A stretch of 64,000 nucleotides of DNA, from contig OX597814.1 of the NCBI GenBank assembly GCA_951406725.2, positions 99,572,001-99,636,000 of the forward strand, given 5' to 3'. The notes beneath the pieces are model-generated. The model was not told where the DNA came from and ran no database searches. It saw only the letters and a program-made list of their open reading frames with translations. Position numbers and translations under genes: made by a program. Source of the stretch: Octopus vulgaris. Its lineage: Eukaryota. Below, piece by piece: positions 9,168 to 59,863 of this stretch (positions within the stretch are counted from its first letter, which is position 1; the number at the start of each line of letters is the position of its first letter).

Positions 9168-9215
9168 TATACACACAATATATCATTTGAATATACACAG
9201 AAAAATATGTATGTA

Positions 9216-10520
9216 CGAGGGACGTTCAATAAGTAATGCCTCTGACCCACTAGCAGTGATGAAAAGAATGCCATTCTGAACATTTTGGCCGCAACTGTAT
9301 ATATATTTATATCTCTATAGAGTAAGTGGCAAATTACAGCTCTGAATTAATTGTGGTTTCTGATTTACAGGTGTTTGAACCGAGTCAAGTGTGAAATGGA
9401 GACTGTTGAGTGTCGAGCAGTGATCCGGTTTTTGTATTTGAAAGGACGCACACCACGGGAGACTTTTGATGAAATGAAAGTAACTTATGGTGATGATGCC
9501 CCATCATATGACCTTGTAAAACGCTGGCATCGTGAATTCAAACATGGTCGGAACTCTGTGGAAACAGCTCCCAGATCTGGTCGCCCTCTTCTGCCATTGA
9601 TGAGGCATCTGTCCGTCAAGTTGAGGCTGCCATTTTGGAAGATCGACGCATAATTATTCGCCAAATAGCCCATGAGGTCAAGATTAGTACCGGGTCTGTG
9701 GAAACTATCATTCATGATCATTTGCATATGCAAAAGGTGTCTGCCAGATGGATTCCCAGGTTGGTCACGCCTTTCCAGAAGCAAGAACGCGTCGAGTGCT
9801 CGAGGGTGAATTTGGAGATGTGCCAAGAAGATGAGTCAAAATTTTTCAAAAGACTGATTACACAGGATGAAACCTGGGTCCATCACGATGATCCAGAGAC
9901 CAAAGCCCAGTCAATGCAGTGGAAGCACCGTGACTCACCCCCTCCAAAGAAGGCAAGGGTGCAGCCCTCCGCTGGCAAGGTCATGCTCACAGTCTTCTGG
10001 GACCAGGACGGAGTAGTGATGACAGATTTCCTGGCAAATGGTACCACAATTGCAAGAGCCTATTATGCTTCACTTTTGAGGAAATTAAGAGAAGTTATCA
10101 AAATCAAGAGGCGGGGTAAGATCAGCAAAGGCATCCTCCTCCTGCAGGACAACGCTCCGGTCCACAACTCGCTTGTCGCCAGATCAGAAGCACAGGCGTA
10201 TGGCTATGAACTCCTCCCCCATCACCCCTATTCTCCTGACCTTGCACCCTCTGATTTTCACCTCTTCCCAGCCATGAAGTTGTTTTTGAAAGGAAAACGT
10301 TTCCCAGATGATGCAGCATTGATTTCTGAAGTCACGTTGAGGTTGGGGGACCAAGCTGGGTTCTTCTACAAAAACGGTCTCCAGAGCCGCATCAAACGAT
10401 GGGAGAAATGCGTAACTCTGGGTGGTTCCTATGTAGAAAAAGACTACTAACTGTGCCAAGTTTCGTTGCTCTACAGCTATGGGAAGTGGGTCAGGGGCAT
10501 TACTTATTGAACGCCCCTCG
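9216..10520 (+). mobile_element. Full-length mariner (Tc1/mariner, DD34D) DNA transposon
   Basis: ~36-bp TIRs CGAGGG.CGTTCAATAAGTAATGCC.CTGACCCACT, TA target duplication at both ends, ~1.3 kb. Confidence 0.95.
9396..10450 (+). CDS. Mariner transposase with one frameshift near 9585
   Basis: N-terminal HTH region, WIPRL, TQDETW, QDNAPVH, YSPDLAPSDFHLF. Confidence 0.9.
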
Positions 10521-10660
10521 TATATATAAAAAAAGTTTTGCGTAATGAGATAAAAAACAAAGGCTGTGTAGATATTAGAACATTTATAGATAGAAGGTCT
10601 TACAGCTGTTTCCAGGATATTTATTAATTATATCCCTTCAACGGAGATGGTGTGAGTTTA
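10520..10660 (-). repeat. PLE-terminus-like repeat with a degenerate hammerhead
   Basis: Minus strand TCT-CCGTTGA-AGGGATAT...ATATCCT-GGAAAC-AGCT-GTA-AGA; similar to 40190-40300. Confidence 0.45.
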
Positions 10661-10684
10661 GTAATAGTTAGTTTGTATATGTAT

Positions 10685-11650: not shown

Positions 11651-11718
11651 GACTTGTCAATGTAAATATCGATGAATGGCGTTAACTGTAGCTAGCACTC
11701 TGAAAATTATATATATGA

Positions 11719-11755
11719 GGCGTAGGAGTGGCTGTGTGGTAAGTAGCTTGCTAAC
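11719..11755 (+). mobile_element. 5' part of a family-1 SINE interrupted by the retroelement array
   Basis: GGCGTAGGAGTGGCTGTGTGGTAAGTAGCTTGCTAAC matches the head of the SINE whose 5' end is at 51128 (minus strand). Confidence 0.9.
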
Positions 11756-12111
11756 TACGGTTTGGACGCGTTTTCTTCCCGGTAAGAGTTTTGCTGTGTT
11801 ATTAATTGTTGAATTCCTACTACTGAAAATTTGCCTTTAAACGTTGCTGAACTGTCTTGTTCTCCGGTTTTACCGGGAAATAATTGAATAATTTCTTACC
11901 GTTGAACTGTTAGCCACTGTGGCTTTTTATTTACGTGACTATATATAGTCCTGCCAGACTATTTTCGTGCCCCTCCCCCGAATGGGGGTGGGAATTGGAA
12001 TTTTTGAACTGCTTTTTTGAACTACTTTGGAAGAAAAACTTTCTATAGGTTTCCCAGTTTTGTGGGAAACCAATATTCGTAATTTTTGTGTTGTCTAATT
12101 TCAACAGAATA

Positions 12112-13514
12112 ATGTCTGTTGAAATTATTCACGAAAGTAGTGCTCTTGAGGAGAGCAATGTTAAAAAATTTTCTGAGGTAGCCGCAGTGGCTACCGAGAA
12201 GATTGACATCGATGTCAACCAGCTCGTCGAGCTATTTAAAAGAATGCAAGAGGAGGGTGGTGATGTTAAAATATCACCCTCCGCCAGTATCGTGGAGACC
12301 GAGAAGCGGACCGTAGTGTTTAAAACTTTCTGTCCACAAAGCAGAAGGTTCAAACACTTTGAAAAAAGCACCATCGAGAAATGCCTGTCCCCGATTTGGA
12401 AGGACATCGTGTACGTCGCCAGGGGACGGGCATATGGCACTGTGGATGTCCGCTTCTCGGGGGAAGAAATGGCCCGCGGGCATTCTGTGAACCCCCTAAA
12501 ACCAAGGAGGTGGTACTTTTTCCAAGCTATAGGGGACGCAGGTCGTCCCGGGTCAGGATTGTAGAAGCCCCGCCGGACGTAGATCCGGTAGAGGTAGTGG
12601 CCGCCCTGTTATATAAAAGGGCGGACAAAATAAAAATACTAGAAGTAACATGCTCTACCCCTCGATTTTGGCTCGGGCGTAACATTAATATATTAATTCA
12701 AGGAACAGCGGAGGACCTGCAGCTCCTTCCTGAGAGGGTGCTCGTGGGCGAGAACGTAGCCCTCAGGGTACAGGTCGAAGGCCGAAAACCCACCTGTTAC
12801 GCCTGCAGCAAAAAGGGCCACATTCGTGTAGACTGTCCAGACAAGCAAAAGAAACCGCAGACACCAGGCCCCTCAGATAATAAAAAAGTCCCTACCCTTG
12901 CAAACACACCTACCCCTACAAAAACAAAAATCCCACTCCTGCTGTTACGGTGCCAACCCCAAAACAGACTGAAGAAAAAAACCCAGCCCTCGCACTCACA
13001 AACCCCTACACTATTAAAACCTCCCACCCCCTAAAAACTGCGGCGCCTACCGAACAAACTATTGCTACCACAGACGATACCATGGAGGTATCAGAGGGGG
13101 GATTTACACCAGTTCGTAAAAGAATTCGTGCAGCATCCCCGTCCACATCCCCTACAAAAAATAATAAAAACAAAGACACACCACAGACACGGAAAAAAAA
13201 AATCCCGCTCAACTGGCCCAGAAAAAGAAGACAAAAAAGAAAATGAACTCATATTAATTGAATTCGACACACAAGACAAATACATAAACGATATTGTGGT
13301 TCAGCATCAGTCAGCAAGACTGTACAACAAATACAAAGATCGAAATAGACACGCGTGGATTGCGGAAACAACGTTCAAACAATTAAAAGACAGACACCCA
13401 AACGCCATCCGGCATATCGCGAACTTGCCGGACTATCTGAAGAAAGAGGAGAAAGAAGGGGCCCACAAACGTGTGGTGAGGTCGGCCCCCACCTCTCCAA
13501 CGAAATGTAAGTAG
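12112..13514 (+). CDS. A1 ORF1, gag-like nucleic-acid-binding protein with zinc knuckle (3 homopolymer frameshifts)
   Basis: CYACSKKGHIRVDC knuckle, P/T/K-rich linker; the frame fragments join at A-runs. Confidence 0.85.
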
Positions 13515-13530
13515 AACCTTTACTTTTGTA

Positions 13531-16500
13531 ATGGCTTCGCTTAACCTTGGTTGTTTAAATGTACGTGGTCTGAGTTCGAAGTGGAAGCAGGCTTGTTTCC
13601 TCGACGACCTCAGATCACATGATATACATGTGATGGTTGCTACAGAGACCAAGCTGGACAGCCTACAAACCTTCTCGCTTCTCCTGAATGGCTACGAGAA
13701 AATCATGTCTCCTGGCCAGACCGGAGGGCGAGGGGGCGTAGTGGTACTGATCCGTAAAGACTTGGCTCTACAGACAAGTACAGTCTATGTAGACCCAGAA
13801 GGTGGGCTGGTCGTCCTTGATGTGACATACAGCAGTAAGGCCTTCAGGTTGATCGGACTCTATGCACCTTGTGCTAGAGGTTTCCAAACTGATTTTTATC
13901 GGCGCCTAGAGGGCTTTCTCGTGACGTCGAAGACTTTAGTGATATTAGGGGACTTTAATGCTATCGTTGACGTACACATCGATAGCGTTGGCTCGATCTA
14001 TAGGAAAGTGAACTCACGTCTCGTGGATCTGCTTAAGCGGTTTCAGCTAGCAGATCGTTACAGACTTGACCATCCGAACGTCCCAGAGTGGACCTGGATG
14101 AGTGGCGACGGAAGGTTCAAGTCTTATCTAGACAGGATAGTGATAAGAACTAGAGATAAGTCTAGTTTTAGTTGTCCACAGCTCGTCCAGGTGCCCTATA
14201 CTGACCATAGAATGGTCACGTGTAGACTGGACATAGATAGCACACTTAAGATAGGAACCGGCTACTGGAAGCTGAACAAGTCTATTTTGACACACGAGGC
14301 ATACCGTAGCCGGATTAAGGTGTTAGTGCAGAGGGCGTTAACCGGAGCCGTGGTTAATAACCGGTGGTGGTTCACCCTCAAAAGAGCCATTCGATTCGAG
14401 TCCATTAGATTTAGTAAACAACTAAGACTAGATAGGGCTAGAATAGAAGGGCAACTAGTTAAGAACTTAGAGGAGGCGTTGAGGTTGGGCTCTGCATCTC
14501 ACATTTTAGCGGCGAGAACGGCATTAGACCGTCACCTCAAAACCAAACATGAGGGATGTAGAGTCCGGGCTAAAGTACGAGCATTGGGCCGTGAGGGAAT
14601 TAATGTTGCCGGATGGGCCCGTACGATAGAAACACAGCGTGGAAACGATGCCACAATTGGGTCTCTTGTTGATGAAAACGGATGCACGATCAAGAAGCGG
14701 GACGAGATGTGTGAGGCACTCCACAAGCACTTCGCCGAGTTGTTCGGGAGGAGCGGGACGCTGGATCATGGTGAGGCCCTTAGGGACTTCCTGTCTGGTG
14801 GCCCGCGCCTCTCGACACGAGAGGCTGAGTGCTGTGAAGGGCCAATCACAGCCGAGGAAGTAATCGAGGTGTTGGGCAAGTGCCCCGGGGAGAAGTCGCC
14901 GGGTCTCGATGGTCTGCCCTATGAATTTTATAGAAGTATGCCAAACTTGTTCGTGCACCTGCTGGCTAGCGTCTACGCCAACTGGCAGCAGAATGGGAGA
15001 ATTCCCAAGTCTGCGAGCCGGGGGCGGTGACCTTGATCAGGAAGGACCCGAACAAGGGGGACGAGATAGGGAACTTCAGGCCCATAACTCTGTTAAACAC
15101 AGAGTTAAAGATTCTGGCCAAGGTGCTAGCAAAAGGTTGGCGCGGGTCGTGGACAAACTTGTCGGGGAAGCGCAAACGTGCGCTATCCCCGGCAGAACGA
15201 TCCACGACAATCTCCACCTTATACGCTACTCCTTAGAGAGGGTGGGGAAGCTTTCTGGCGCAGGGGGAGCACTGGTACATTTAGACCAGTCCAAAGCATT
15301 TGATAGGGTCGACCATCGGTACCTGGCGGCGGTCCTCGGAGAGGCTGGCCTAGGCCCGACCTTTCGAGGTTGGATCGCTGCTTTGTATAGCGACATCGAG
15401 TCTGTAGTCAAGGTGAACGGTTCCTTTTCGAAGCCGTTCAGGATCGAGCGTTCAGTTCGTCAAGGGTGTCCCCTGTCCTCGCTCCTATACGTATTGGCTC
15501 TTGAGCCTTTGCTGCGGAAGTTGGAGGCACTAGGGGCGCGCCGCATGATCTATGGTGTGGAAGAGGAGCTACGGCGTATGCGGATGACACCTCCATCATC
15601 GTGGCAGACGAAGGCCAGCTTCCAGTGGTGGAAGAGGCCATAAAAAGCTACGAGGCGGTGGCAGGAGCAAAGGTTAACAAGGACAAGTCGGTCGGTTTGC
15701 AACTCGGCACCTGGAGGGGCAAGCCGATGCCGTCCAATAACGTCGTAGGGCGTTGGACGGAAGGTCCTGTTAAGCTGCTCGGAGTCTGGTTCGGGCCAGA
15801 CCTCCAGATTGAGAAAAATTGGAGTGAGGTGGCCAACAAGGTGACCGCTCTAACCCAGACCTGGTCTGGGCGGGCGTTATCCCTGCTAGGGAAGTCGGGG
15901 GTGGTGCAGATGTTTATAGCATCAGTAATCACCTACCGTCTGACCGTGGTGCCTTGCCCCGATTTGTGGGTGAACAAGTTGGAGAGAATCCTTTTCCGAT
16001 TTTTGTGGAAAGGAGGAAAGCCACTTGTAAAGCGCTCTGTCTGCTGCCAGAAACCACTAAAGGGTGGGCTAGGGATGCCTTGGCTGAGGATGCGAAAACT
16101 CGCGTTAAGGTTGAGGCACCTCTGGCTTTACCTGGATGGAGAGCAGGTGTGGTCGCCGCACGTCCGGTTCTACCTTCCCCAGTTAACATCCCTAACGGAC
16201 ATCGGTGCATGGATCAAGCGGAGACCTAAACTGAGTGAATGGCATTTGGAGTGCCGTCAGGCGCTCCAGCTACTATCTCGGGTGGGCAACGCCGGCAACA
16301 GGAGTTCCACCACGGATTTCTATAGCGGGTTAGTGGAGATTAAGTCCGAAGACGCCTTGGGGAGACCCTGGGCTACGATGAAAATCAGTTGATCAACCTG
16401 TTCCGGAGGACGTTCGGGCCGGGGTATCTGGATAATTACCAGAAATCCCTAGCCTGGCAATGTTTCCGTGCGGCTTTACCTGTTCGCGACAAGCTGTCAA

Positions 16501-16928
16501 GGCACGGTAGTGCCGTCTCGCCGACATGCCCGCGATGTGAGCAGAATAGGGAGACCGTCTTGCACGCATTCGTGGAGTGTCCGGAGTTATCGGGACTGAT
16601 AGCTTTTGTAGAACAACTGTTGTCAGTGATGGGAAGAGTACAGCTATCAGCTGAGTCTATCATCGAGATTGTGCCGCCCCCTTTCCTTAACAGGGAAAGA
16701 AAGGCTTGTTTTTTCTGTGTAGTAGCCATATTGAAAGAAACAGTATGGAAGACGCGTACGAAAGGTATAGTGACAGGCACCTTTGTCTCCGGCCAGGGGT
16801 TGATTAACTTTTTTAGTTACCACCTCAGTAGCAAAATCAGGCTGGAGAAGAGGTGTCTGTCACAAGATATGTTTGTGAAAAGATGGAAGCCTGTGGCATA
16901 CAAGATGGGTATGTTTGGCACCAGGTAA
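13531..16928 (+). CDS. A1 ORF2, AP endonuclease + reverse transcriptase + C-terminal zinc-binding domain (4 homopolymer frameshifts)
   Basis: LNVRGL, ATETK, LGDFNA, YLDR, TDH, GYWKLN, KSPGLDGLPYEFY, FRPITLLN, LDQSKAFDRVDH, VRQGCPLS, AYADD, GGLGMP, CPRC..ETVLHAFVEC. Confidence 0.92.
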
Positions 16929-17171
16929 GTGTGACCGGATCAGAAAGTAAAGGTTCTACCCGGATGGCTGGGTGTCCGTCCTTCGACATGATCATTAATA
17001 TTTTTAAACATTGCCTTCGTAAAATTCATTGTTTATAATCTTATCCGTAATTTCATTCGAAAATTGTAACTGTGTTAAGCTACTTCACCCTTTATATTTG
17101 TCTGTCCTTGTTTGTCCCCTCTTTGTAAATGCCTAAATGGCAAATTATATGAAATAAAGTAGCTTGCTAAC

Positions 17172-19143
17172 TGCGCATGTGCGAGTCAGTGTTGTGTTTG
17201 CCACTGAAGCAGTGAAGATGTGCTTTTGAAGCCGTCTTGAATTGAAAACTTTGGAAGCCACATGTAAGGTAAGATTCTGTTTTCTGGGTCCAGTGGGAGT
17301 TTTTGTTGAGAATTATTTTTTACATGCAGGAAGTCCTACTGGATTCAGAATTCTGATTCTGCCGACATGTGGCAAATATATTTTTCTCGCTGAGAAAATT
17401 TTTGGGGCGTATCCGTCTTCGAATTGTATTGTGCTGTGAAGAACTACCAATTTTACACCAATTCATGTGGAAGTTGTGCGATCCTGGTTCGATTTAGGCC
17501 GGGAGTACCAAATGGCCAAAAGGATTTTGCTGCGTTTTTGACTTTCTTTTTAACTTTATTTGACTTTCTTTTCAACTTTATTTGACTCTCTCCTTTTTTC
17601 ATTGTGACTTTCTTCGGATTTCCTTTTCTTCTCGTCTTTTAGTTTTATTCTAAATACATTTATTTAAAAAAAAACAAAAAAACATGGCAACAAAAGAAAC
17701 CACCGCTTTGGAATGGGAGGTCATCCCACCCAAAACGTGGATTGAAAGTCTTGAGAAGAGGACGGTGGTCCTACGAACCTATTCTAGGTCGCGTGGAGCC
17801 ATTGCCCTCTTCGACAGGAATACTATAGAGAAAGAGTTGGGGGACTACCTGCCAACTATAAAATTTATTTCTCGGGGGACTAAATTTGTAACGGTGTGGT
17901 TGCTGTTTGGTACCCCCGAGGAAGCTAGCAGATTTGCTAGCGAGCCACTGGAGGGAGAGGAAATTTTGTTCCTCCTCTCGTATTGTGGCAGAAAAGTGAA
18001 AAGAGCCTGGGTGTGTGGGCTGCCCCCGGGCACGGAGGCGGAATGGATCGAGAAGACCATCCGGTGAGGCCTGGGGGATAGCGGACCCAGACTGCTGAGT
18101 GTGAAGGTGGCTCCCGCGGCCGCCTGGGAGGGGTCGAGGGCAACTTTAACCCTGTGGACACCGGTAGCCGTGGGAGAAATGAAATTCCCGGACTTCCTGA
18201 GAATGGCTGGGCACAGGTACCCGGTGATACTCGAGGGTCGCCCCCCCAAGTGTCACCTGTGCCTGAAGCCCGGACATATCAGGAGGAATTGTCCCAGGGG
18301 CCGTGGTGGTGCCCCGGAGCAGAGAGGGGAAAAGGCGCCCGCCGCCCCCTCATTGGAGGGGAGACGATGGAAGTCGTGGAGGAGGTTGCCTCCACGAAAA
18401 GAAAGAGAAAGGCGAGCAACAATGGTTGCCCGCCAAAGAACGCTCAGGGGGCGAAGGGGGATAGCAATCCCCCGTGTCTGGTGACGGAGTCCCCTGGGTC
18501 AGCAGTCTCCCCCAAAAGAAGGAGGAGAAAAAGGAGAGGTCGGACGACTGACGTTTCTGTGTCGCCGACGGAGCCGCGGGTGGGATGTGTGCCACCCGCG
18601 GACAAGGCTCCGCCAGTAGGAAGTGTGCCACTGACGGAGCAGTGTGAGGTCCCTCCCTGTGAAGAGGAGATGCTTCTCCTCCTTTACCACAAGGGAGAGG
18701 AGGTGGAAAGATTCTTGAATGGCTTGGGTGACCGAGAGCGTAAGGGCACGGTCGGCTCAAGGAGTCCGTTATGGCCTCCGCGGGTAGCTGCGGAAAAAAT
18801 AACAGAAGATACTTTGTCAAGGGTCGCAGAGACCTTTGAAAAGAAAGACTTTACTTTTCTCTTTGCAGGCCCTGACTTGTCGTCGCAGAGTTGTCTGCAG
18901 GCGGCAAGACAATTTGCTTCGGGGACCTGACGAGAAGAATTGTTGAACATTTTTTATGTAATTTGAATCATTGTTTATTGAATGTATTTATTGAAACATT
19001 GTTTTAGAGAAGCGAAAGTCGGCGGGCGCTTTCGACTTCTCCCATCACCATCTTCATCCACCACCACCATCATCCCTTAATGTCCTTGTCCAGCCCGTAG
19101 CTACTACTCTGTGTGCTGCCCTAGTGGCAAATTATATAAAATA
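17172..19143 (+). mobile_element. ORF1-only non-autonomous retroelement (element B) related to the Tx1 LINE
   Basis: Bounded by identical 15-bp target copies (17157-17171, 19144-19158); ORF1 homolog only; 3' end TGCC-N5-GGCAAATTATAT.AAATA shared with A. Confidence 0.85.
17684..18930 (+). pseudogene. Element B ORF1 with CCHC knuckle (in-frame TGA at 18065, frameshift near 18360)
   Basis: EKRTVV, TIEK.L, SY.GR, EGRPPKCHLCLKPGHIRRNC and TMEV align with A ORF1 but are strongly diverged. Confidence 0.8.
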
Positions 19144-19586
19144 AAGTAGCTTGCTAACCTCACTGACTGAAGAGTGACTTTGCTTACCTTACTACGGTTT
19201 GGACGCGTTTTCTTCCCGGTAAGAGTTTTGCTGTGTTGTTAATATTACTTCGTACCATCTGGAACTTGTTGAATTTTACTACTGAAAATTTGTTTTTGAA
19301 CGTTGTTGAACTGTCTTGTTCCTCGGTTTTACCGGGGAATAATTGGATAATTTGTTACTGTTGAACTGTTAGCCATAGTGGCTTTTTAATCTACGTGACT
19401 GTATATAGTCTTTCCAGACTATCTTCGTGCCCCTCCCCCGAATGGGGGGGGGGAATTAAACCTAATTTTTGAAATGCTTTTTACCACTCATTGAACTGGA
19501 AGAAAAACTTTTTATAGGTTTCCCAGTTTTGTGGGAAACCAATATTTGTATTTTTTGTGTTGTCTATTACTAATTTCAACAGAATA

Positions 19587-21002
19587 ATGTCTGTTGAGAT
19601 TATCCACGAAAATAGTGCTCTAGAGGAAAGCAATGTTGATAATTGTAGTAAAAAATTGTCGGCGGTAGCCGCAGTGGCAACCGAGAACATTGACATCAAT
19701 GTCAATCAGCTCGTCGAACTATTGAAAAGAATGAAAGAGGAGGGTGGTGATGTTAAAATATCACCCTCCGCCAGTATCGTGGAGACTGAGAAGCGGACCG
19801 TAGTGTTTAAAACCTTCTGTCCACAAAGCAGAAGCTTCAAACACTTTGAAAAGAATACTATCGAGAAATGCCTGTCCCCGATTTGGAAGGACATTGTGTA
19901 CGTCGCCAGGGGAGGGGCATATGACACTGTGGAGGTCCGCTTCTCGGGGGAAGAGGTGGCCCGCAGGCATTCTGTGAATCCCCTAAAAACTAAGGAGGTG
20001 GTACTTCTGCTAACCTATAGGGGACGCAGGACGTCCCGGGTCAGGATTGCAGAAGCACCGCCGGAAGTACATCCTGTAGAGGTAGTGGCCGCCCAGTTAT
20101 ATAAAAAGACGGACAAAATTAAAATATTACAGGTAACATGCTCTGTCCCTCAATATTGGCTTGGGCGAGACATTAATGTAATAATTCAAGGAACACAGGA
20201 GGACCTGCAGGTCCTTCCTGAGAGGGTGCTCGTGGGCGAGAATGTTGCCCTCAGGGTACAGGTCGAAGGCTGAAAACCCACCTGTTACGCCTGCGGCAAA
20301 AAGGACCACATTCGTGTAGACTGTCCAGACAAGCAAAAGAAACCGCAGACTCCAGGCCCCTCAGATAATAACAAAATCCCTACCCTTGCAAACTCACCTA
20401 CCCCTACAAAAAACAAAAAGTCCCACTCATGCTGTTACGGTGCCAACCCCAAAACAAACTGACAAAAAAACCCAGCCCTTGCACTCACAACCCCATCATT
20501 ATTAAAACTTCCCATCCCCTTAAAAACTGCGGCGCCTACTGAACAAAATATTGCTACGCCAGACGATACCATGGAGGTATCAGAGGGGGGATTTACAAAA
20601 GTTCGTAAAAGAACTCGTGCATCATCCCCGTCAACATCCCCTACAAAAAATAATAAAAACAAAGACACACCACAGACACCAAAAAAAAAATCCTGCCCAA
20701 CTGGCCCAGAAAAAGAAGACAAAGAAAATGAACTCATATTAATTGAATATGATACACAAAACAAATATATAAACGATATTGTGGTTCCGCATCACACAGC
20801 AAGACTGTACAACAAACACAAAGATCGAAACGAAAGATGTGCGTGGATTGCGGAAATAACGTTCAAACAATTAAAAGACAGACACCCAAAGGCCATCCGG
20901 CGTATCGCGAACTTGCCGGACTATCTGAAGAAGGAGGAGAAAGAAGGGGCCCACAAATGTGTGGTGAGGTCGGCCCCAACCTCTGCAACGAAATGTAAGT
21001 AG
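19587..21002 (+). pseudogene. A2 ORF1, disrupted
   Basis: Highly similar to A1 ORF1; CGA>TGA at 20271 just before the knuckle. Confidence 0.85.
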
Positions 21003-21019
21003 AACTTTTACGTTTTGTA

Positions 21020-24000
21020 ATGGGTTCTCTTAACCTTGGTTGTTTGAATATGCGTGGTCTGAGTTCGAAGTGGAAGCAGGCTTGTTTCCTCGACGACCTC
21101 AGATCACATGTGATGGTTGCTACAGAGACCAAGCTGGACAGCCTACAAACCTTTTCGCCTCTCCTGAATGGCTACGAGAAAATCATGTCTCCTGGCCAGA
21201 CCGGAGGGCGCGGGGGTGTAGTGGTACTGATCTGTAAAGACTTGGCTCTGCAGACAAGTACAGTCTATGTGGACCCAGAAGGTGGGCTGGCCGTCCTTGA
21301 TGTGACATACAGCAGTAAGGCCTTCAGGTTGATCGGACTCTATGCACCTTGTGCTAGAGGTTTCCAAACTGATTTTTATCGGCGCCTAGAGGGCTTTCTC
21401 GTGACGTTGAAGACTTTAGTAGTATTAGGGGACTTTAATGCTATCGTTGACGTACACATCGATAGCGTTGGCTCGATCCATAGGAAAGTGAACTCACGTC
21501 TCGTGGATCTACTTAAGCGGTTTCAGCTGGCAGATCGTTACAGACTTGACCATCCGAACGTCCCAGAGTGGACCTGGATGAGTGGCGACGGAAGGTTCAA
21601 GTCTTATCTAGACAGGATAGTGATAAGAACTAGAGATAAGTCTAGTTTTAGTTGTCCACAGCTCGTCCAGGTGCCCTATACTGACCATAGAATGGTCAAG
21701 TGTAGACTGGACATAGATAGCACACTTAAGATAGGAACCGGCTACTGGAAGCTGAACAAGTCTATTTTGACTCGCGAGGCATACCGTAGCCGGATTAAGG
21801 AGTTAGTGCAGAGGGCGTTAACCGGAGCCGTGGTTAATAACCGGTGGTGGTTCGCCCTCAAAAGAGCCATTCGATTCGTGTCCATTAGATTTAGTAAACA
21901 ACTAAGACTAGATAGGGCTAGAATAGAAGGGCAACTAGTTAAGAACTTAGAGGAGGCGTTGAGGTTGGGCTCTGCATCTCATATTTTAGCGGCGAGAACG
22001 GCATTAGACCGTCACCTCAAAACCAAACATGAGGGATGTAGAGTTCGGGCTAAAGTACGAGCATTGGGCCGTGAGGGAATTAATGTTGCCGGATGGGCCC
22101 GTACGATAGAAACACAGCGTGGCAACAATGCTACAATTGAGTCTCTTGTTGATGAAAACGGATGCTCGGTCAAGAAGCGGGACGAGATGTGTGAGGCACT
22201 TCACAAGCACTTCGCCGAGTTGTTCGGGAGGAGCGGGACGCTGGATCATGGTGAGGCCCTTAGGGACTTCCTGTCTTGTGTCCCGCGTCTCTAGACACGA
22301 GAGGCTGAGTGCTGTGAAGAGCCAATCACAGCCGAGGAAGTAATCGAGGTGCCCCGGGGAGAAGTCGCCGGGTCTCGATGGGCTGCCCTATGAATTTTAT
22401 AAAAGTATGCCAGACTTGTTCGGGCACCTGCTGGCTAGCGTCTACGCCAACTGGCAGCAGAATGGGAGAATTCTCAAGTCTGCGAGCCGGGGGTGGGGTG
22501 ACGTTGATCAGGAAGGACCCGAGCAAGGGGGACGAGATAGGGAACTTCATGCCCATAACTCTGCTGAGTTAAAGATTCTGGCCAAAGTGCTAGCAAAAAC
22601 GTTGGCGCGGGTCGTGGACAAACTTGTCGGGGAAGCGCAAACGTGCGCTATCCCTGGCAGAACGATCCACGATAATTCCGCCTTATACGCTACTCCTTAG
22701 AGAGGGTGGGGAAGCTTTCTGGCGCAGGGGGAGCACTGGTACATTTAGACCAGTCCAAAGCATTTGAAAGGGTCGACCATCGGTACTTGGCGGCGGTCCT
22801 CGGAGAGGCTGGCCTAGGCCCGACCTTTTGAGGTTGGATCGCTGCTTTGTATAGCGACATCGAGTCTGTAGTCAAGGTGAACGGTTTCTTTTCGAAGCCG
22901 TTCATGATCGAGCGTTCAGTTCGTCAGGAGTGTCCCCTGTCCTCGCCCCTATACGTATTGACTCTTGAGCCTTTGCTGCGGAAGTTGGAGGCACTAGGGG
23001 GGGGGGGGGCACCGCATGATCTATGGTGTGGAAGAGGAACTACGGCGTATGCGGATGACACCTCCATCATCGTGGCAGATGAAGGCCAGCTTCCAGTCGT
23101 GGAAGAGGCCATCAAAAGCTACGAGGCGGTGACAGGAACAAAGGTTAACAAGGACAAGTCGGTCGGTTTGCAACTCGGCACCTGGAGGGATTAGCCGATG
23201 CCGTCTAATAACGTTGTGGGGCGTTGGACGGAAGGTCCTGTTAAGCTGCTCGGCGTCTGGATTGGCCCAGACCTCCAGATAGAGAAAAATTGGAGTGACG
23301 TGGCCAGCAAGGTGACCGCTCTAACCCAGACCTGGTCTGGGCGGGCGTTATCTCTGCTAGGGAAAGCAGAGGTGGTGCAGATGTTTATAGCATCCACTAA
23401 TCATCTACCGTCTGACCGTGGTGCCTTGCCCCGATTTGTGTCTGAACAAGTTGGAGAGAATCCTTTTCCGCTTTTTGTGGAAAGGAGGAAAGCCACTTGT
23501 AAAGCGCTCTGTCTGCTGCCAGAAACCTCTAAAGGGTGGGCTAGGGATGCCTTGGCTGAGGATGCGAAGACTCGCGTTAAGGTTGAGGCACCTTTGGCTT
23601 TACCTGAATGGAGAGCAGGTGTGGTCACCGCACGTCCGGTTCTACCTTCCCCAGTTAACATCCCTAACGGACATCAGTGTATGGATCAAGCGGAAACCTA
23701 AACTGGGTGAATGGCATTTGGAGTGCCGTCAGGCGCTCCAGCTACTCTCTCGGGCGGGCAACGCCTGCAACAAGAGTTCCACCACGGATTTCTATAGTGG
23801 GTTACTGGAACTTATGTCAGAAGACGCCTTAGGGGAAGCCCTGGGCTACGATGAAAATCAGTTGGTCAACCTGTTCCGGAGGACGTTCGGGCCGGGGTAT
23901 CTGGATAATTACCAGAAATCCCTGGCCTGGCAGTGTTTCCGTGCGGCTTTACCTGTTCGCGACAAGCTGTCAAGGCACAGAAGTGCCGTCTCGCCGACAT

Positions 24001-24401
24001 ACCCACGATGTGAGCAGGATAGGGAAACCGTCTTGCACGCATTCGTGGAGTGTCCGGAGTTATCGGGACTGATAGCTTTTGCCGAACAACTGTTGTCAAT
24101 GATGGGAAGAGTACAGCTATCAGCTGAGTCTATCATCGAGATTGTGCCGCTTCCTTTCCTTAACAGGGAAAGAAAGGCTTGTTTTTTCTGTGTAGTAGCC
24201 ATATTGAAAGAAACAGTATGGAAGACGCGCACGAAAGGTATAGTGACAGGCACCTTTGTCTCCGGCCAGGGGTTGATTAACTTTTTTAGTTACCACCTCA
24301 GTTGCAAAATCAGGCTGGAGAAGAGGTGTCTGTCACGAGATATGTTTGTGAAAAGATGGAAGCCTGTGGCATGCAAGCTGAGTATGTTTGGCACCAGGTA
24401 A
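21020..24401 (+). pseudogene. A2 ORF2, disrupted
   Basis: APE, RT and zinc motifs as in A1, with stops, deletions and KAFD>KAFE, QGC>QEC changes. Confidence 0.88.
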
Positions 24402-24633
24402 GTGTGACCGGATCAAAAAGTAAAGGTTCTACCCGGATGGCTGGGTGTCTGTCCTTCGACATGATCACTAAGTAATACTTTTAAACATTGTCTTCGTAAA
24501 GTTCATTGCTTATAATCTTATCCGTAATTTCATTCGAAAATTTTAACTGTGTTAAGCTACTTCACCCTTTATATCTGTCTGTCCTTGTTTGTCCCCTCTT
24601 TGTAAATGCCTAAATAGCAAATTATATGAAATA

Positions 24634-25017
24634 AAATAGCTTGCTTATGAACCACATGGTTCCGGGTTCAATCCCACTGCGTGGCACGTTCGGCAAGTGT
24701 CTTCTACTATAGCCTCGGACTAACGAAAGCCTTGTGAGTGGATTTGGTAGACGGAAACTGAAAGAAGCCTGTCGTGTATGTGTATACATGTATCTGTGTG
24801 AATATGTTTGTGTCTGTGTTTGTCCCCTCAACATCGCTTGACAAATGATACTGGTGTGTTTACGTCCCTGTAACTTAGCGGTTCGGCAAAAGAGACTGAT
24901 AGAATAAGTACTAGGCTTACAAAGAATAAGTCCTGGGGTCGATTTGCTCGACTAAAGGTGGTGCTCCAGCATGGCCACAGTTACATAACTGAAACAAGTA
25001 AAAAGAATAAAAGAGTA
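24634..25017 (+). mobile_element. 3' part of the interrupted family-1 SINE
   Basis: Resumes AAATAGCTTGCTTATGAACCACATGGTTCCGGGTTCAATCCC (B box) and continues through the family-1 tail. Confidence 0.92.
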
Positions 25018-25064
25018 TATATATATTCTTTATTCTTTTACTTTTTTCGATTATTTGACTGCGG

Positions 25065-31213: not shown

Positions 31214-32567
31214 CGTAGTTAAAAGTGAGTCACAAATACTAAATATTAATAGCGTTGTTTCTTTCACTGTAGTTATCATAATTATTATTCCTTTCATTTA
31301 CTGGAACATTTTCTTATATTTTCTTATTATTTTCGGACAGTATATATATGTCCTTAGCTACCTTAAAAATATAATATCACAGTTCCCTGAAATCCTTAGC
31401 ATAAAGTAGCCTCATGTGATATATGACTTCGCTTCGAAAACACCTATCGAGATATTACAAGATTTGCTCTTGCAATTCCGCTTTCCTTTATGAAATTTAA
31501 CGTTGACAATATTTCATGAACTTGAAAGCAAGTTTGAGGTAAATTAAAAAATGAATCACATGAATTTTTATTCATTTTCTTTTTTCTTTATTTTTTATTT
31601 TCGTTGATGCATTTTAACTTACAATAACCAAACATATTGGAAACAACGAAGGATTATATTTTTTATAAACTTAATGCACACAAATTTTATAAATATCAGT
31701 TTCAGTTTTCGGTGAAACACTAAGAATTTTCAGGCTGTGTATTAATCGAAACTTTCGATTCTCGTACTTGATTGGTATTTTATTACTAAAGGGCGTTCCC
31801 CACGCATGCATAATTGTCTTACTACGCCTAGCTATAAGAGGTGACAGTCTACAGAAGTATGGATAATAAGTGAACCTATACTATAATTGTTATGAGAATT
31901 AGCCCATCAGGAGGAAATTTTAGAGTAACAGCTTATATGCAATGCTTTTGGTAGAGGCAGTGAATCTCTAGTCAAATGCTGCGTGATAGATGAAAGAAAA
32001 ATTGTCATCCACGCTTTTATGGTTGATTAAATTAGACCGTAAGCAAATAACATTCATGACACCAACGGTATCACGGGACATGTATATGGACTCTGTTCAG
32101 GATATGTGTTCATATTGGGAAGGCAAATTGGCAAAGCATATACCAATGGCATGTTTGAATCTCATACCACTAGAGACGATTGATACAAATACCTCGAAGT
32201 CGACGAGAATATTGCATTAGGGATTCTGTGAGAAGAGCTTGAGTGATAAAAAGAATAATTCACCAAACTTTAAAATATTTTGAAAACCAGTGCTTGTAGT
32301 CAATAAAAAAAACGTATCGTTTGCAGTTATAGTGCTAGTACCAAAATTTGGTTTCTAGCATGGCATTTATGAAACTGAGTGACAAGCGAGAAACTCCTGG
32401 TCCTAAAATCAGATCACTGTAACTGCTTAATTTGGAATACCACATTAGATGGTATAACTGGTATGCGAGGAATGAAAACGGTCTTACCTTTACCACAACC
32501 AGTAAGGAATACTTACATATGCCTATGGAAAAGTCAGGTGCAAAGTCATGAGAACACTAAAGTACCC

Positions 32568-39389
<6,822 letters not shown>

Positions 39390-40303
39390 CCCAAGGAAAA
39401 TCATTAAATAGTGCAATACAGAAGAATTACTTCCCAATTAAACGACGCTACAGTAATGCTAGATTATTCACATTTGGTTGTACATTTGGTTAATGTAGAT
39501 GCTAGTTAGAGTTTAAGCTCTTGGCAGGCTTACCCAAACCAGATTGAGTGATAGTTAGAATCCAAACGAAGCGCAATCTACTTTCACCTCAATCAGAAAA
39601 CCAAATTGCTACGGTAACTGCAAAAAAAAGGTTGGACGAGCTAAGATCTGAAAATGATACGTGAAGGAAGAAACGGAATCAATCGGTCTCTTTTGGTCTG
39701 AAATCAAGGAGGTAGTCTAAGAAGGTATTTTTTGGAGTTCATCTCCCTTAGATATGTCTTTCCGGTAAATTTCTTAATTTTTTGCTAGATCGTTTACCAA
39801 AATGGAGGCGAACAACTTTCTCCATGTGATCAGCTTGAAAAATTAAGATTCTTGGATATTTTCCCACTCTTAACATTAGACCAATGGTAGCCTTAATTCA
39901 TAAATAAAGAAGACCCCTTTGAATGAACAGCACATGGAATCTACGTCTCCATACTTTCCATTTGTAATGACAAAATATGAAGTCCTAACGGAATTTACAT
40001 ACCATTGACAAGAAGCATTTCTACCACTTCTACACACCACTTTCCTTGGATGATGAAACTACAACACCCTATATATATTTTTACTTTTATTCCCTTATTT
40101 CCCCTTATGCTTCTTATTCCCATGCTTTTCCAAAATAACTCCATATATTGAACTCTACTATTTCCCCTTTATTTAATTATCTCATATCATCTCTAATAAA
40201 GGAAGACCCCTAATATCCGAGAAACATCTGTAAGACTAACTTTCTCTGTATAAATGTCCTGAAAATTCCACAAAGCCTTGGCTTTGTTGTCTCATTTTAT
40301 TTA

Positions 40304-40405: not shown

Positions 40406-40740
40406 TTTTTGCTAGAATGGAACATATATATTAATTCAATCTATACTCTTACAAACGCTACACCTTTAAAAAGAAATGGACTTGTTTGATTGGCCCTTTA
40501 GAAAAAACGGTCAATCTTCGAGCGATAAACAAAAAGGTCAAAAATATATGTATATATATATAAAAAACTTATAAAAATTATAAAATCCGAGGAAAAAAAC
40601 CGAGGAAAAAACCTATTGCCGTTAATGAAGACAGTACAAATTAATGCATAGAAATTAAACCTGTTATAAATACTGCAATACATATTTATATTAAAATCCA
40701 CATATATATATCAACATACACAAAAGGATGCGCGTAAACG

Positions 40741-41234
40741 TTTTGTGGTTCAACCCAGCTTTCAATTTGGCCGTAAAGACTAATATAGGTAAGGAATTTT
40801 TGAGATTAGTCTCTAAGCATTTTAGGCAGGGTCATAAATTCTACAGAATATTTAATAGAAGAACCCTGAAGGTTAGCTATTCTTGTTGCAGAAATTTCGC
40901 CTCTTACATTAGCCAACATAATAGGAAGCTAATTGAGATTAGACATGGTGCCGAGCCCATTAAGAAATGTAATTTCAAAAACGAAAGCTCCTGTCCGTTA
41001 GAAGGGAAATGTCTAGTGAAAGGAGTAGTTTATAGAGCCAAGGTGCAAGTGGAAGGCTCATCGGAATACAAGACATACACAGGGGCTTCAGAAAATTCAT
41101 TTAAAACAAGATTTTATTCTCATAAGAATTCTTTTAAATACAATAATTCTTTGAATCAAAGAAGTGAATTAATGAACTTATGTAGGCACACGGCTAAATT
41201 TAAAATGTCGAATATAAATATACCATATGGATAG
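40741..41234 (+). pseudogene. PLE linker + GIY-YIG endonuclease fragment with an internal deletion (Naiad-like by motif recall)
   Basis: WFNPAF..VKTNIGKEFL, KVSYSC, CPLEGKCL, VVYRAKV, YTGAS, FKTRFYSHK, LN.RSELMNLCRH. Confidence 0.8.
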
Positions 41235-43751: not shown

Positions 43752-44137
43752 GCTGTGTGGTAAGTAGCTTGCTTACGAACCACATTGTTCCGGGTTCATT
43801 TCCACTGCGTGGCACCTTGTGCAAATGTCTTCTACTATAGCCTCGAGCCGACCAAAGCCTTGTGAGTGGATTTGGTAGACGGAAACTGAAAGAAGTCCGT
43901 CGCATATCTGTATATATATATATTTGCGTGTATATGTTTGTGTGTCTGTGTTTGTCCCTCCAATCGCTCTACAACAGATGCTGGTGTGTTTACGTCCCCG
44001 TAACTCAGTGGTTCGGCAAAAGAGACTGATAGAATAAGTACTAGGCTTATAAAGAATAAGTCCTGGGGTCGATTTGCTCGACTAAAGACGGTGCTCCAGC
44101 ATGGCCACAGTGAAATGACTGAAACAAGTAAAAGGGA

Positions 44138-44140
<3 letters not shown>
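43749..44140 (+). mobile_element. SINE (family 1), target site unoccupied
   Basis: GTGGCTGTGTGGTAAGTAGCTTGCTTACGAACCAC through the full tail. Confidence 0.9.
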
Positions 44141-44205
<65 letters not shown>

Positions 44206-59359: not shown

Positions 59360-59863
59360 ATGGAGCTGAACGCAGTGGAAAATAGAGTAGTAAGCGGCTG
59401 CAGGTCTCGGAACGAATATAGTGACAGGAACGCAGTTCTAATTTCAGAAACTAATCCTAGCAGATTAAGATTCACGTCGGCGAACTCCAAGATCAAAAAC
59501 GCCGTCTACCAATGCAAGGTTTACACGGACTCAGATGCCTTCACTTATGTAGGGGCATCATCCTCAAGATTGTCTTTGCGTGTCTCCAACCATTACGCAA
59601 CTTTTCGGGACGTGAACAAGCGCCAGACCACGGGACTCAGTAAGCTAATATGGCGACTGAAGGATGCGAACTTAAGCTATAGGCTGGAATGGTCAATTTT
59701 GTCGGTGGCCCTCCCATTTGATAGGGGCAGAAGACAGTGCAACCTTTGTGTCTCCGAACTCTTCCATATTTTGTTTGCCAGAGGCCGGATGGTAAACGGG
59801 CTTTTACAGTCGGCTTTTCGATGCCCCCATTGGCGGCGTTACACTTATCTGGCCTTTAAATAG
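59360..59863 (+). pseudogene. PLE GIY-YIG endonuclease C-terminal domain (Naiad-like by motif recall)
   Basis: AVYQCKV, YVGAS, R..NH..TF, TGLSKLIWRLK, W.IL..A.PF, CNLC..E, RCPH. Confidence 0.8.

Follow-up and report, generated by a model that had tools for sequence, protein, structure and literature searches.

In a 64,000-nt stretch of the Octopus vulgaris genome (assembly GCA_951406725.2, contig OX597814.1, positions 99,572,001 to 99,636,000 of the forward strand; hereafter the window), a single tRNA-type SINE (short interspersed nuclear element) is interrupted by three head-to-tail units, with a copy of the same 15-bp target at each boundary. The outer units, A1 and A2, are copies of a LINE (long interspersed nuclear element), A, and the unit between them, element B, carries ORF1 (the first open reading frame, ORF) and lacks ORF2, which encodes the endonuclease and reverse transcriptase (RT). 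Our analysis of B in the 2.8-Gb Octopus genome assembly (label G000; contigs C1, C4, C9 and others) points to an ORF1-only family that shares target, terminal hairpin and age with A, is probably mobilised through the ORF2 protein (ORF2p) of A, and inserts serially in front of elements already resident in the SINE. Two further families at this target, C (a relative of B within what we call the B-clade) and E, serve for comparison. The features of the locus are as follows (UTR, untranslated region; RRM, RNA recognition motif).

11717..11740, plus strand: 5′ head of the host tRNA-type SINE, ending where the array is inserted (SINE copies without an insert lie at 10681 and about 43740)
11741..11755, plus strand: leftmost 15-bp target copy
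11756..17156, plus strand: A1, LINE A copy with ORF1 and an APE-RT ORF2, both frameshifted, 34 nt gone at the 5′ end
17157..17171, plus strand: target copy separating A1 from B
17172..19143, plus strand: element B, ORF1-only, 1972 nt
17172..17683, plus strand: B 5′ UTR, 512 nt, family-specific
17684..18930, plus strand: B ORF1, 415 aa in intact copies, with two predicted RRM-like domains, a CCHC knuckle and a low-complexity tail
18251..18292, plus strand: CCHC zinc knuckle in B ORF1 (Pfam zf-CCHC, E 0.03, below the curated cut-off)
18931..19143, plus strand: B 3′ UTR, 213 nt, without a poly(A) tail
19008..19041, plus strand: predicted hairpin (alignment and fold), sequence conserved across B-clade families, absent from A and E
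19117..19129, plus strand: terminal 4-bp hairpin, common to A, older A, the B-clade and E; candidate ORF2p recognition signal
19144..19158, plus strand: target copy separating B from A2
19159..24633, plus strand: A2, full-length LINE A copy, more diverged, ORFs broken
24634..24648, plus strand: rightmost target copy, diverged
24649..25026, plus strand: rest of the host SINE, 86% identical to the SINE copy at 43762–44149

A1 is 99.4% identical to an intact A copy, and A2 differs by 5.2% from the nearest sampled one; endonuclease and RT matches are present in both, and the ORFs of both are broken. A1 is the youngest unit of the array and A2 the oldest, with private divergences of 0.2% for A1, 0.7% for B and 4.5% for A2.

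The outline of B given in an earlier note on this DNA holds: the element runs from 17172 to 19143 between identical 15-mers (17157–17171 and 19144–19158), has its own 5′ UTR and a 3′ UTR estimated there at ~210 nt, and no APE or RT match was found within it. The 5′ UTR shows no significant similarity to that of A (score 58; shuffles 52 ± 8) and may contain a promoter. The note also described a full-length CCHC ORF1; the knuckle is present, but the frame is not open in the window copy, which has a stop at 18065–18067 and a 1-nt deletion near 18357. Pfam searches with B ORF1 returned the sub-threshold zf-CCHC match alone, and no match to a mammalian L1 ORF1 family. An AlphaFold model of residues 1–204 (mean pLDDT 80) hits proteins with tandem RRMs in Foldseek (E about 1e-4, TM-scores low), and single RRMs match it at Z 7–8 with an rmsd of 2–3 over 65–85 residues. 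The model shows two RRM-like domains, followed in the protein by the CCHC knuckle. A mammalian L1 ORF1p structure was not among the fold matches listed, which does not count as a test. As had been stated, B ORF1 is homologous to A ORF1 and strongly diverged from it (29% identity between intact copies over residues 14–204, E 3e-22). DNA similarity to A is indeed confined to the 3′ end, where blastn supports the final 27 nt in the window (E 0.03) and 37 nt between intact copies (E 0.03); the ~65 nt of the earlier note are seen by eye only, with gaps.

One A copy has both frames open and encodes an ORF1 of 467 aa and an ORF2 of 1133 aa, with APE, RT and zf-RVT domains, the last a C-terminal zinc motif. 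The target of A is itself a repeat, namely a fixed 15-bp site in the SINE head, and B uses exactly the same site, its ends running straight into this one target. Exact searches with two junction patterns yielded 716 and 165 matches genome-wide (reversed controls, 0), and our census covers 190 element ends: most of the first 100 of the 716, 20 of the first 100 of the 165, and the B loci. Every family ends in the 4-bp hairpin, an A-rich spacer and then the target. The commonest form of the hairpin is found in 151 of 180 parsed ends and both sides are changed in 13, although these are related copies and not independent events. At least 58,384 exact empty targets are present in the genome.

The note's scheme of three tiers, SINE, LINE and half-LINE, does not survive in its first tier. 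The SINE 3′ tail shows no match to the A 3′ end and, because the two tails are unlike, the SINE is to be regarded as host or landing pad and not as a demonstrated passenger. There is a 26-nt, 85% match (E 0.003) between the SINE interior (window about 43933–43958) and the A 3′ UTR just upstream of the terminal hairpin, which could be due to chance in T/G-rich sequence. An Rfam search with a SINE copy returned no family at threshold. From its tRNA-like head and CORE-like middle, the host SINE is probably OR1 or a relative. OR1 is an octopus tRNA-derived CORE-SINE (PMC4824008). In some older element families, 9 of 14 junctions (L187–L203) fall within a version of the target that belongs to another SINE subfamily. 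At another locus (L138, G000:C1:111116887-111116972), two element 3′ ends with target copies face each other's strand at a distance of about 60 bp, and the element bodies are missing.

B is not single-copy. The DNA search, in which 37 of 2323 candidates were scored, gave 21 full-length matches at 93–100%, window copy included, and with flanks fetched we count at least 41 canonical copies at 23 loci, uniform in length (median 1979 nt, 26 clustered copies) and in target. They lie interior to many contigs, inside SINE copies and not at chromosome ends. In pairwise comparison, copies of B differ by 1.8% on average (26 copies), those of A by 1.9% (11), those of C by 2.6% (20) and those of E by 0.9% (4), and these similar values indicate that the four families were active together. 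None of the listed sequence holders matching B is recorded as RNA; four contig sets of guessed RNA status cover much of B, and this is no evidence on expression either way.

In the absence of ORF2, B ORF1 is kept by purifying selection. The ratio dN/dS (omega) is below 1, as the earlier note had anticipated: measured against B it is 0.09–0.21 for 11 of the 15 B-clade copies compared (no upper bound exceeds 0.37), with dS saturated in the other four. This comparison leaves aside L064, L065, L085, L146, two older A copies and E2, which offered too few codons. Within family B, variants common to more than one locus comprise 12 nonsynonymous and 15 synonymous changes in the N-terminal half of ORF1 and 14 and 9 in the tail; for singletons the figures are 29 and 16 and 35 and 12, respectively.

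The census shows how far the loss of ORF2 extends beyond B, a point that had been missed. B-clade ORF1s were found at 129 of the 190 ends, A-type at 19 and E-type at 5, and 37 ends had no ORF1. ORF2 is missing in 128 of the 129 B-clade units and in all five E-type units, and present in 18 of the 19 A-type units. Seven of the 37 ends without ORF1 carry ORF2: five are 5′-truncated, one is 98.7% identical to A, and one revealed an A-type ORF1 on extension. An A-type ORF1 is common to every full-length ORF2-bearing family found at the target, namely A, the A2 variant, two older A copies and a family that is older still. A junction-independent sample of 18 of 138 ORF1 hits, taken from high-ranked rows and avoiding family C, contained no locus with ORF2 within 1.2 kb downstream; 14 of the 18 carry the shared 3′ end and target.

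In a 50-row ORF1 tree, 22 rows, one of them an Octopus sinensis protein, make up the B-clade, a single group with a support of 100/100 and a stem of 1.5 substitutions; A (4 rows) and E (2 rows) form groups of their own. The backbone of the tree is without resolution and its root arbitrary, and therefore it does not give the order of origins. B-clade families differ by dS 1.5–3, and the named homologues come from Octopus species and Argonauta. Judged from these sequences, B is a young family in a deep, self-renewing ORF1-only clade whose synonymous sites are near saturation, and by the same evidence E is a second ORF1-only lineage, separate from the B-clade.

This depth bears on the idea that B arose by internal deletion from another, complete LINE family that carries the same ORF1 and was unsampled or recently lost. 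The search for such a family, among the 190 ends and the 18 ORF1-picked loci, found none, bar one single-copy chimera (L043, G000:C4:127352867-127358779; a B copy precedes it), the sole B-clade unit with an ORF2. Here a C unit runs, with an overlap of 6 nt, into the end portion of A ORF1, which is followed by the whole of ORF2. The existence of this locus, the further ORF1 types present in the genome and the incomplete census (190 of at least 881 ends) speak for an unseen parent. Yet the chimera retains the stop and part of the 3′ UTR of C and was the only full-length match among 40 scored, and each of the B-clade families, dS 1.5–3 apart and none showing ORF2, would need an unseen parent of its own. 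We thus regard a deletion origin of B as very unlikely. The chimera rather illustrates a route by which an ORF1-only lineage could regain ORF2.

Several observations in passing concern the wider ORF1-only repertoire. A tandem 1784-bp unit with copies 99.95% identical (L204, G000:C4:70044300-70048100, with more matches at C4:27.055–27.064 Mb) encodes a 443-aa ORF1 of the same protein family and has an A-rich end, without ORF2 and without the SINE target; its sequence suggests that it is apparently a further ORF1-only lineage in another niche. For another ORF1 type (P0140-like, L171–L185, of 112 matches), an endonuclease match within 1.5 kb after ORF1 was seen in 0 of 15 loci; one has an RT fragment and three a second ORF1 copy 1.4–1.8 kb off. 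Modules are swapped among ORF1-only families (L023/L047, L024, L025, L027, L028, L004 and L009), giving C-type or F-type 5′ UTRs with B ORF1, a B-type head with a C body, and B-type 3′ ends with F-like bodies. Words in the 5′ heads of older autonomous copies recur in older ORF1-only families: those of L070 and L053 in L054 and L074, and those of L205 in family G. Words in many element 5′ heads resemble NRF1 and ETS sites.

The second feature absent from the earlier note is where B lands. The downstream neighbour of the 41 B copies is another B in 17 cases, C in 9, A in 6, E in 2, a C variant in 2, an unidentified element in 1 and the SINE body in 4. Counted per locus, B precedes an element of another family in 19 of 23 cases; treating four short stubs as B makes this 19 of 27. 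Among the first 100 listed of 214 C ends, an element follows in one clear and two unclear cases; the corresponding numbers are about seven clear and four unclear for the first 100 listed of 114 A ends, and four of seven for E. Thus B, unlike C, strongly prefers occupied sites despite abundant empty targets; the rough per-site ratio of B insertion at occupied versus empty targets is about 750, or 380 with the four stubs counted as B. These figures replace an earlier tally of 43 of 58 B-type ends followed by an element, which had also taken in F-like families, an A variant and short stubs.

Such a bias might be a counting artefact if the arrays and B-B runs arose mainly by tandem duplication, unequal crossing-over or assembly error. 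Some neighbours are only 0.1% apart, and distances are 1.0% within arrays versus 2.0% between them. However, the bias persists at the one count per locus given above, array members have sister copies on other contigs, and duplication of B cannot yield B-A, B-C and B-E junctions. We consider this explanation most improbable.

The arrays might also form in one event, with the RT jumping from a finished RNA to a B RNA, or with B and its neighbour moving jointly as a read-through transcript, which would make B a second-template hitchhiker. The downstream neighbours of B are same-age families (A, B, C and E) in 36 of 37 cases, the RNAs appear to bear target sequence at the 5′ end, and end-to-end template jumping is reported for R2. 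In contrast, rare junction variants recur at every junction of one array, the leftmost included (7/7), and at none of another (0/8), and B copies of one array stem from different sub-lineages; in three arrays the youngest of them is the 5′-most. Leftward copying of junction variants is seen in 4 of 6 cases versus 1 of 15 (p 0.011), and the order in the window is consistent with the youngest unit being 5′. A single co-mobilised B-C unit was rejected, as the C copies adjoining B form no clade. Based on the inherited junction variants, the mixed sub-lineages and the young 5′ units, serial insertion at the 5′-most junction is the best reading, and one-event formation is unlikely.

The target copies give hints on how such an insertion would proceed. 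In 50 single insertions, an extra base occurs nine times in the left target copy and never in the right one, and where the two copies disagree at a subfamily-diagnostic base, eight cases run in one direction and one in the other (p 0.04). From this left-sided excess and biased disagreement we infer that the RNA starts 5–6 nt inside the target copy. The earlier description of perfect 15-bp copies is thus right as to the identical flanking 15-mers, and at some loci the duplication is a true one of 15 bp, but the last 5–6 nt of the left copy often match the element and not the target. One locus has a rare target variant at all three junctions, which argues for a stagger of 15 nt; a 9–10-bp duplication as the sole reading was dropped on the same ground.

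In the mechanism we propose, B RNA would be made from its own 5′ promoter, starting 5–6 nt inside the duplicated target, and packaged by B's own ORF1p. It would capture the ORF2p of A in trans through the terminal hairpin. Copies would then be added singly at the 5′-most junction of the array, through target-primed reverse transcription with a stagger of 15 nt. Alternatively, B may be moved by an ORF2p other than that of A, or its ORF1p may serve A in a mutual dependence such as has been proposed for HeT-A. B ORF1 is conserved though A has an ORF1 of its own, and targeting by ORF1p is reported for TRE5-A (PMC5391098) and proposed for HeT-A (bioRxiv 10.1101/782904). Against this, the exact target, the terminal hairpin and the age are common to A and B, and A, when intact, codes for both proteins itself and so would not obviously need B. 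We therefore hold either variant to be improbable.

Overall, we assign a probability of about 0.8 to the view that B is an ORF1-only element that shares target, hairpin and age with A, moves via the ORF2p of A, and inserted serially 5′ of residents. Several findings weigh against it. The chimeric locus couples C ORF1 to A ORF2, and with 190 of at least 881 ends examined and protein searches scored for top candidates, an autonomous LINE that carries a B-type ORF1 and is rare, or uses another target, could have escaped. ORF1 is intact in 5 of the 41 B copies. In an array on C9, at about 0.94 Mb, a young C lies on the 3′ side of an older B, contrary to a strict 5′-youngest order. Finally, clustering of B by downstream neighbour, which is predicted by read-through, was not significant in two planned tests (p 0.07 and 0.16), with p 0.011 in a post hoc split.

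This read-through model is one explanation of the preference for occupied sites: 3′ extensions of the RNA would pair with the downstream neighbour, and the preference would hence be inherited from the source locus. It accounts for the behaviour of both B and C by one rule, and we give it slightly less than an even chance. Tethering, or open chromatin at the promoter of the resident element, is possible but rather less probable, and template jumping within a single event and other causes are each improbable.

Elsewhere in the window, a DNA transposon with 42-bp inverted ends occupies 9210–10526, with a 240-aa transposase fragment at 9728–10450; its motifs mark it as Mariner-like. A 7-kb (TA)n array spans 32400–39400, and the G+C of its plus strand is entirely G over 33001–39000 (GC skew 1.0). 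Short ORFs at 40728–41234 and 59360–59863 appear to resemble the GIY-YIG endonucleases of Penelope-like elements.

ORF1-only LINEs have been known from mammals, fly telomeres and Dictyostelium. The literature that we searched (titles and abstract starts) contained no account of the octopus system, and a database entry may exist, as Repbase, subscription journals and supplements lay outside the search. The recurrence of the ORF1-only syndrome in an interspersed, sequence-specific niche suggests that sharing one common target favours the loss of ORF2. Probably a single endonuclease and a single 15-bp site serve A, B, C and E, whose landing contexts are nonetheless very different, and each family has intact copies. 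It is therefore testable why non-autonomous elements retain ORF1p and whether ORF1p or RNA flanks redirect target choice. Tentatively, and with somewhat more doubt than confidence, the SINE head may be seen as a dispersed telomere-like niche in which an ORF1-only clade radiated into many families and outlasted successive autonomous helpers beyond synonymous saturation, with B as an occupied-site specialist, several hundred-fold per site. In the boldest form, if true, the preference would be passed on with read-through RNA or dictated by ORF1p, and a single ORF2p endonuclease would thereby yield different insertion spectra for each passenger.

Among known systems, the HAL1 elements of mammals have an L1-type ORF1, a poly(A) tail and dispersed insertion. 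B is likewise non-autonomous, encodes ORF1p only and probably has an APE-type LINE as helper. The earlier note's proposal of an old HAL1-like lineage stands in that B is ORF1-only and its clade deep. It does not stand as HAL1 proper, in view of the two RRM-like domains and CCHC knuckle of B ORF1, the lack of poly(A), the fixed 15-bp SINE target and the hetero-arrays, and family B itself is as young as A (1.8% versus 1.9%). HAL1 is ORF1-only with several independent origins (PMC5753468).

Helper A shows features of the Tx1 type, namely APE, RT, a C-terminal zinc motif and a target preference for a repeat; it is set beside Tx1 by these features, and none of its 120 listed homologues carries a clade name. 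LINEs of the Tx1 clade insert into other repeats, such as Tx1 in Tx1D and Tx1-Mar in Mariner-N4_AMi, with Keno, Kibi and Koshi as further members and SINEU as a passenger (PMC4494074). The octopus system resembles them in sequence-specific insertion into another repeat and in a non-autonomous passenger with the same target, whereas the available part of that source names no SINE-head target and no ORF1-coding passenger.

TRE5-A.2 of Dictyostelium lacks ORF2 and is mobilised in trans by its autonomous partner (PMC5391098). B is like it in being ORF1-only and site-selective, with a target tied to a tRNA-type unit, and probably in moving in trans. However, TRE5-A.2 derives from TRE5-A.1, whereas B ORF1 is 29% identical to that of A and falls into a separate tree group, and TRE5-A inserts about 47 bp upstream of tRNA genes, in contrast to B, which lies inside the SINE head at a fixed sequence.

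The closest functional parallel is the HeT-A group. ORF1-only telomeric Jockey elements of Drosophila, HeT-A included, depend on the ORF2 of other families (PMC13534243; PMC6581046; bioRxiv 10.1101/782904), with ORF2 lost dozens of times and ORF1-only lineages spawning new ones (PMC13534243). The octopus elements share with this group repeated ORF2 loss, ORF1-only lineages that yield new ORF1-only families, mixed head-to-tail arrays and, probably, the use of other families' ORF2. In contrast to HeT-A, the niche of B is made up of hundreds of interspersed SINE copies and not of chromosome ends, a target duplication flanks each unit, the probable helper has an APE-RT-zf-RVT architecture, and a host function of these elements is not apparent. 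B works like HAL1, HeT-A and TRE5-A.2, yet it fails a defining feature of each.
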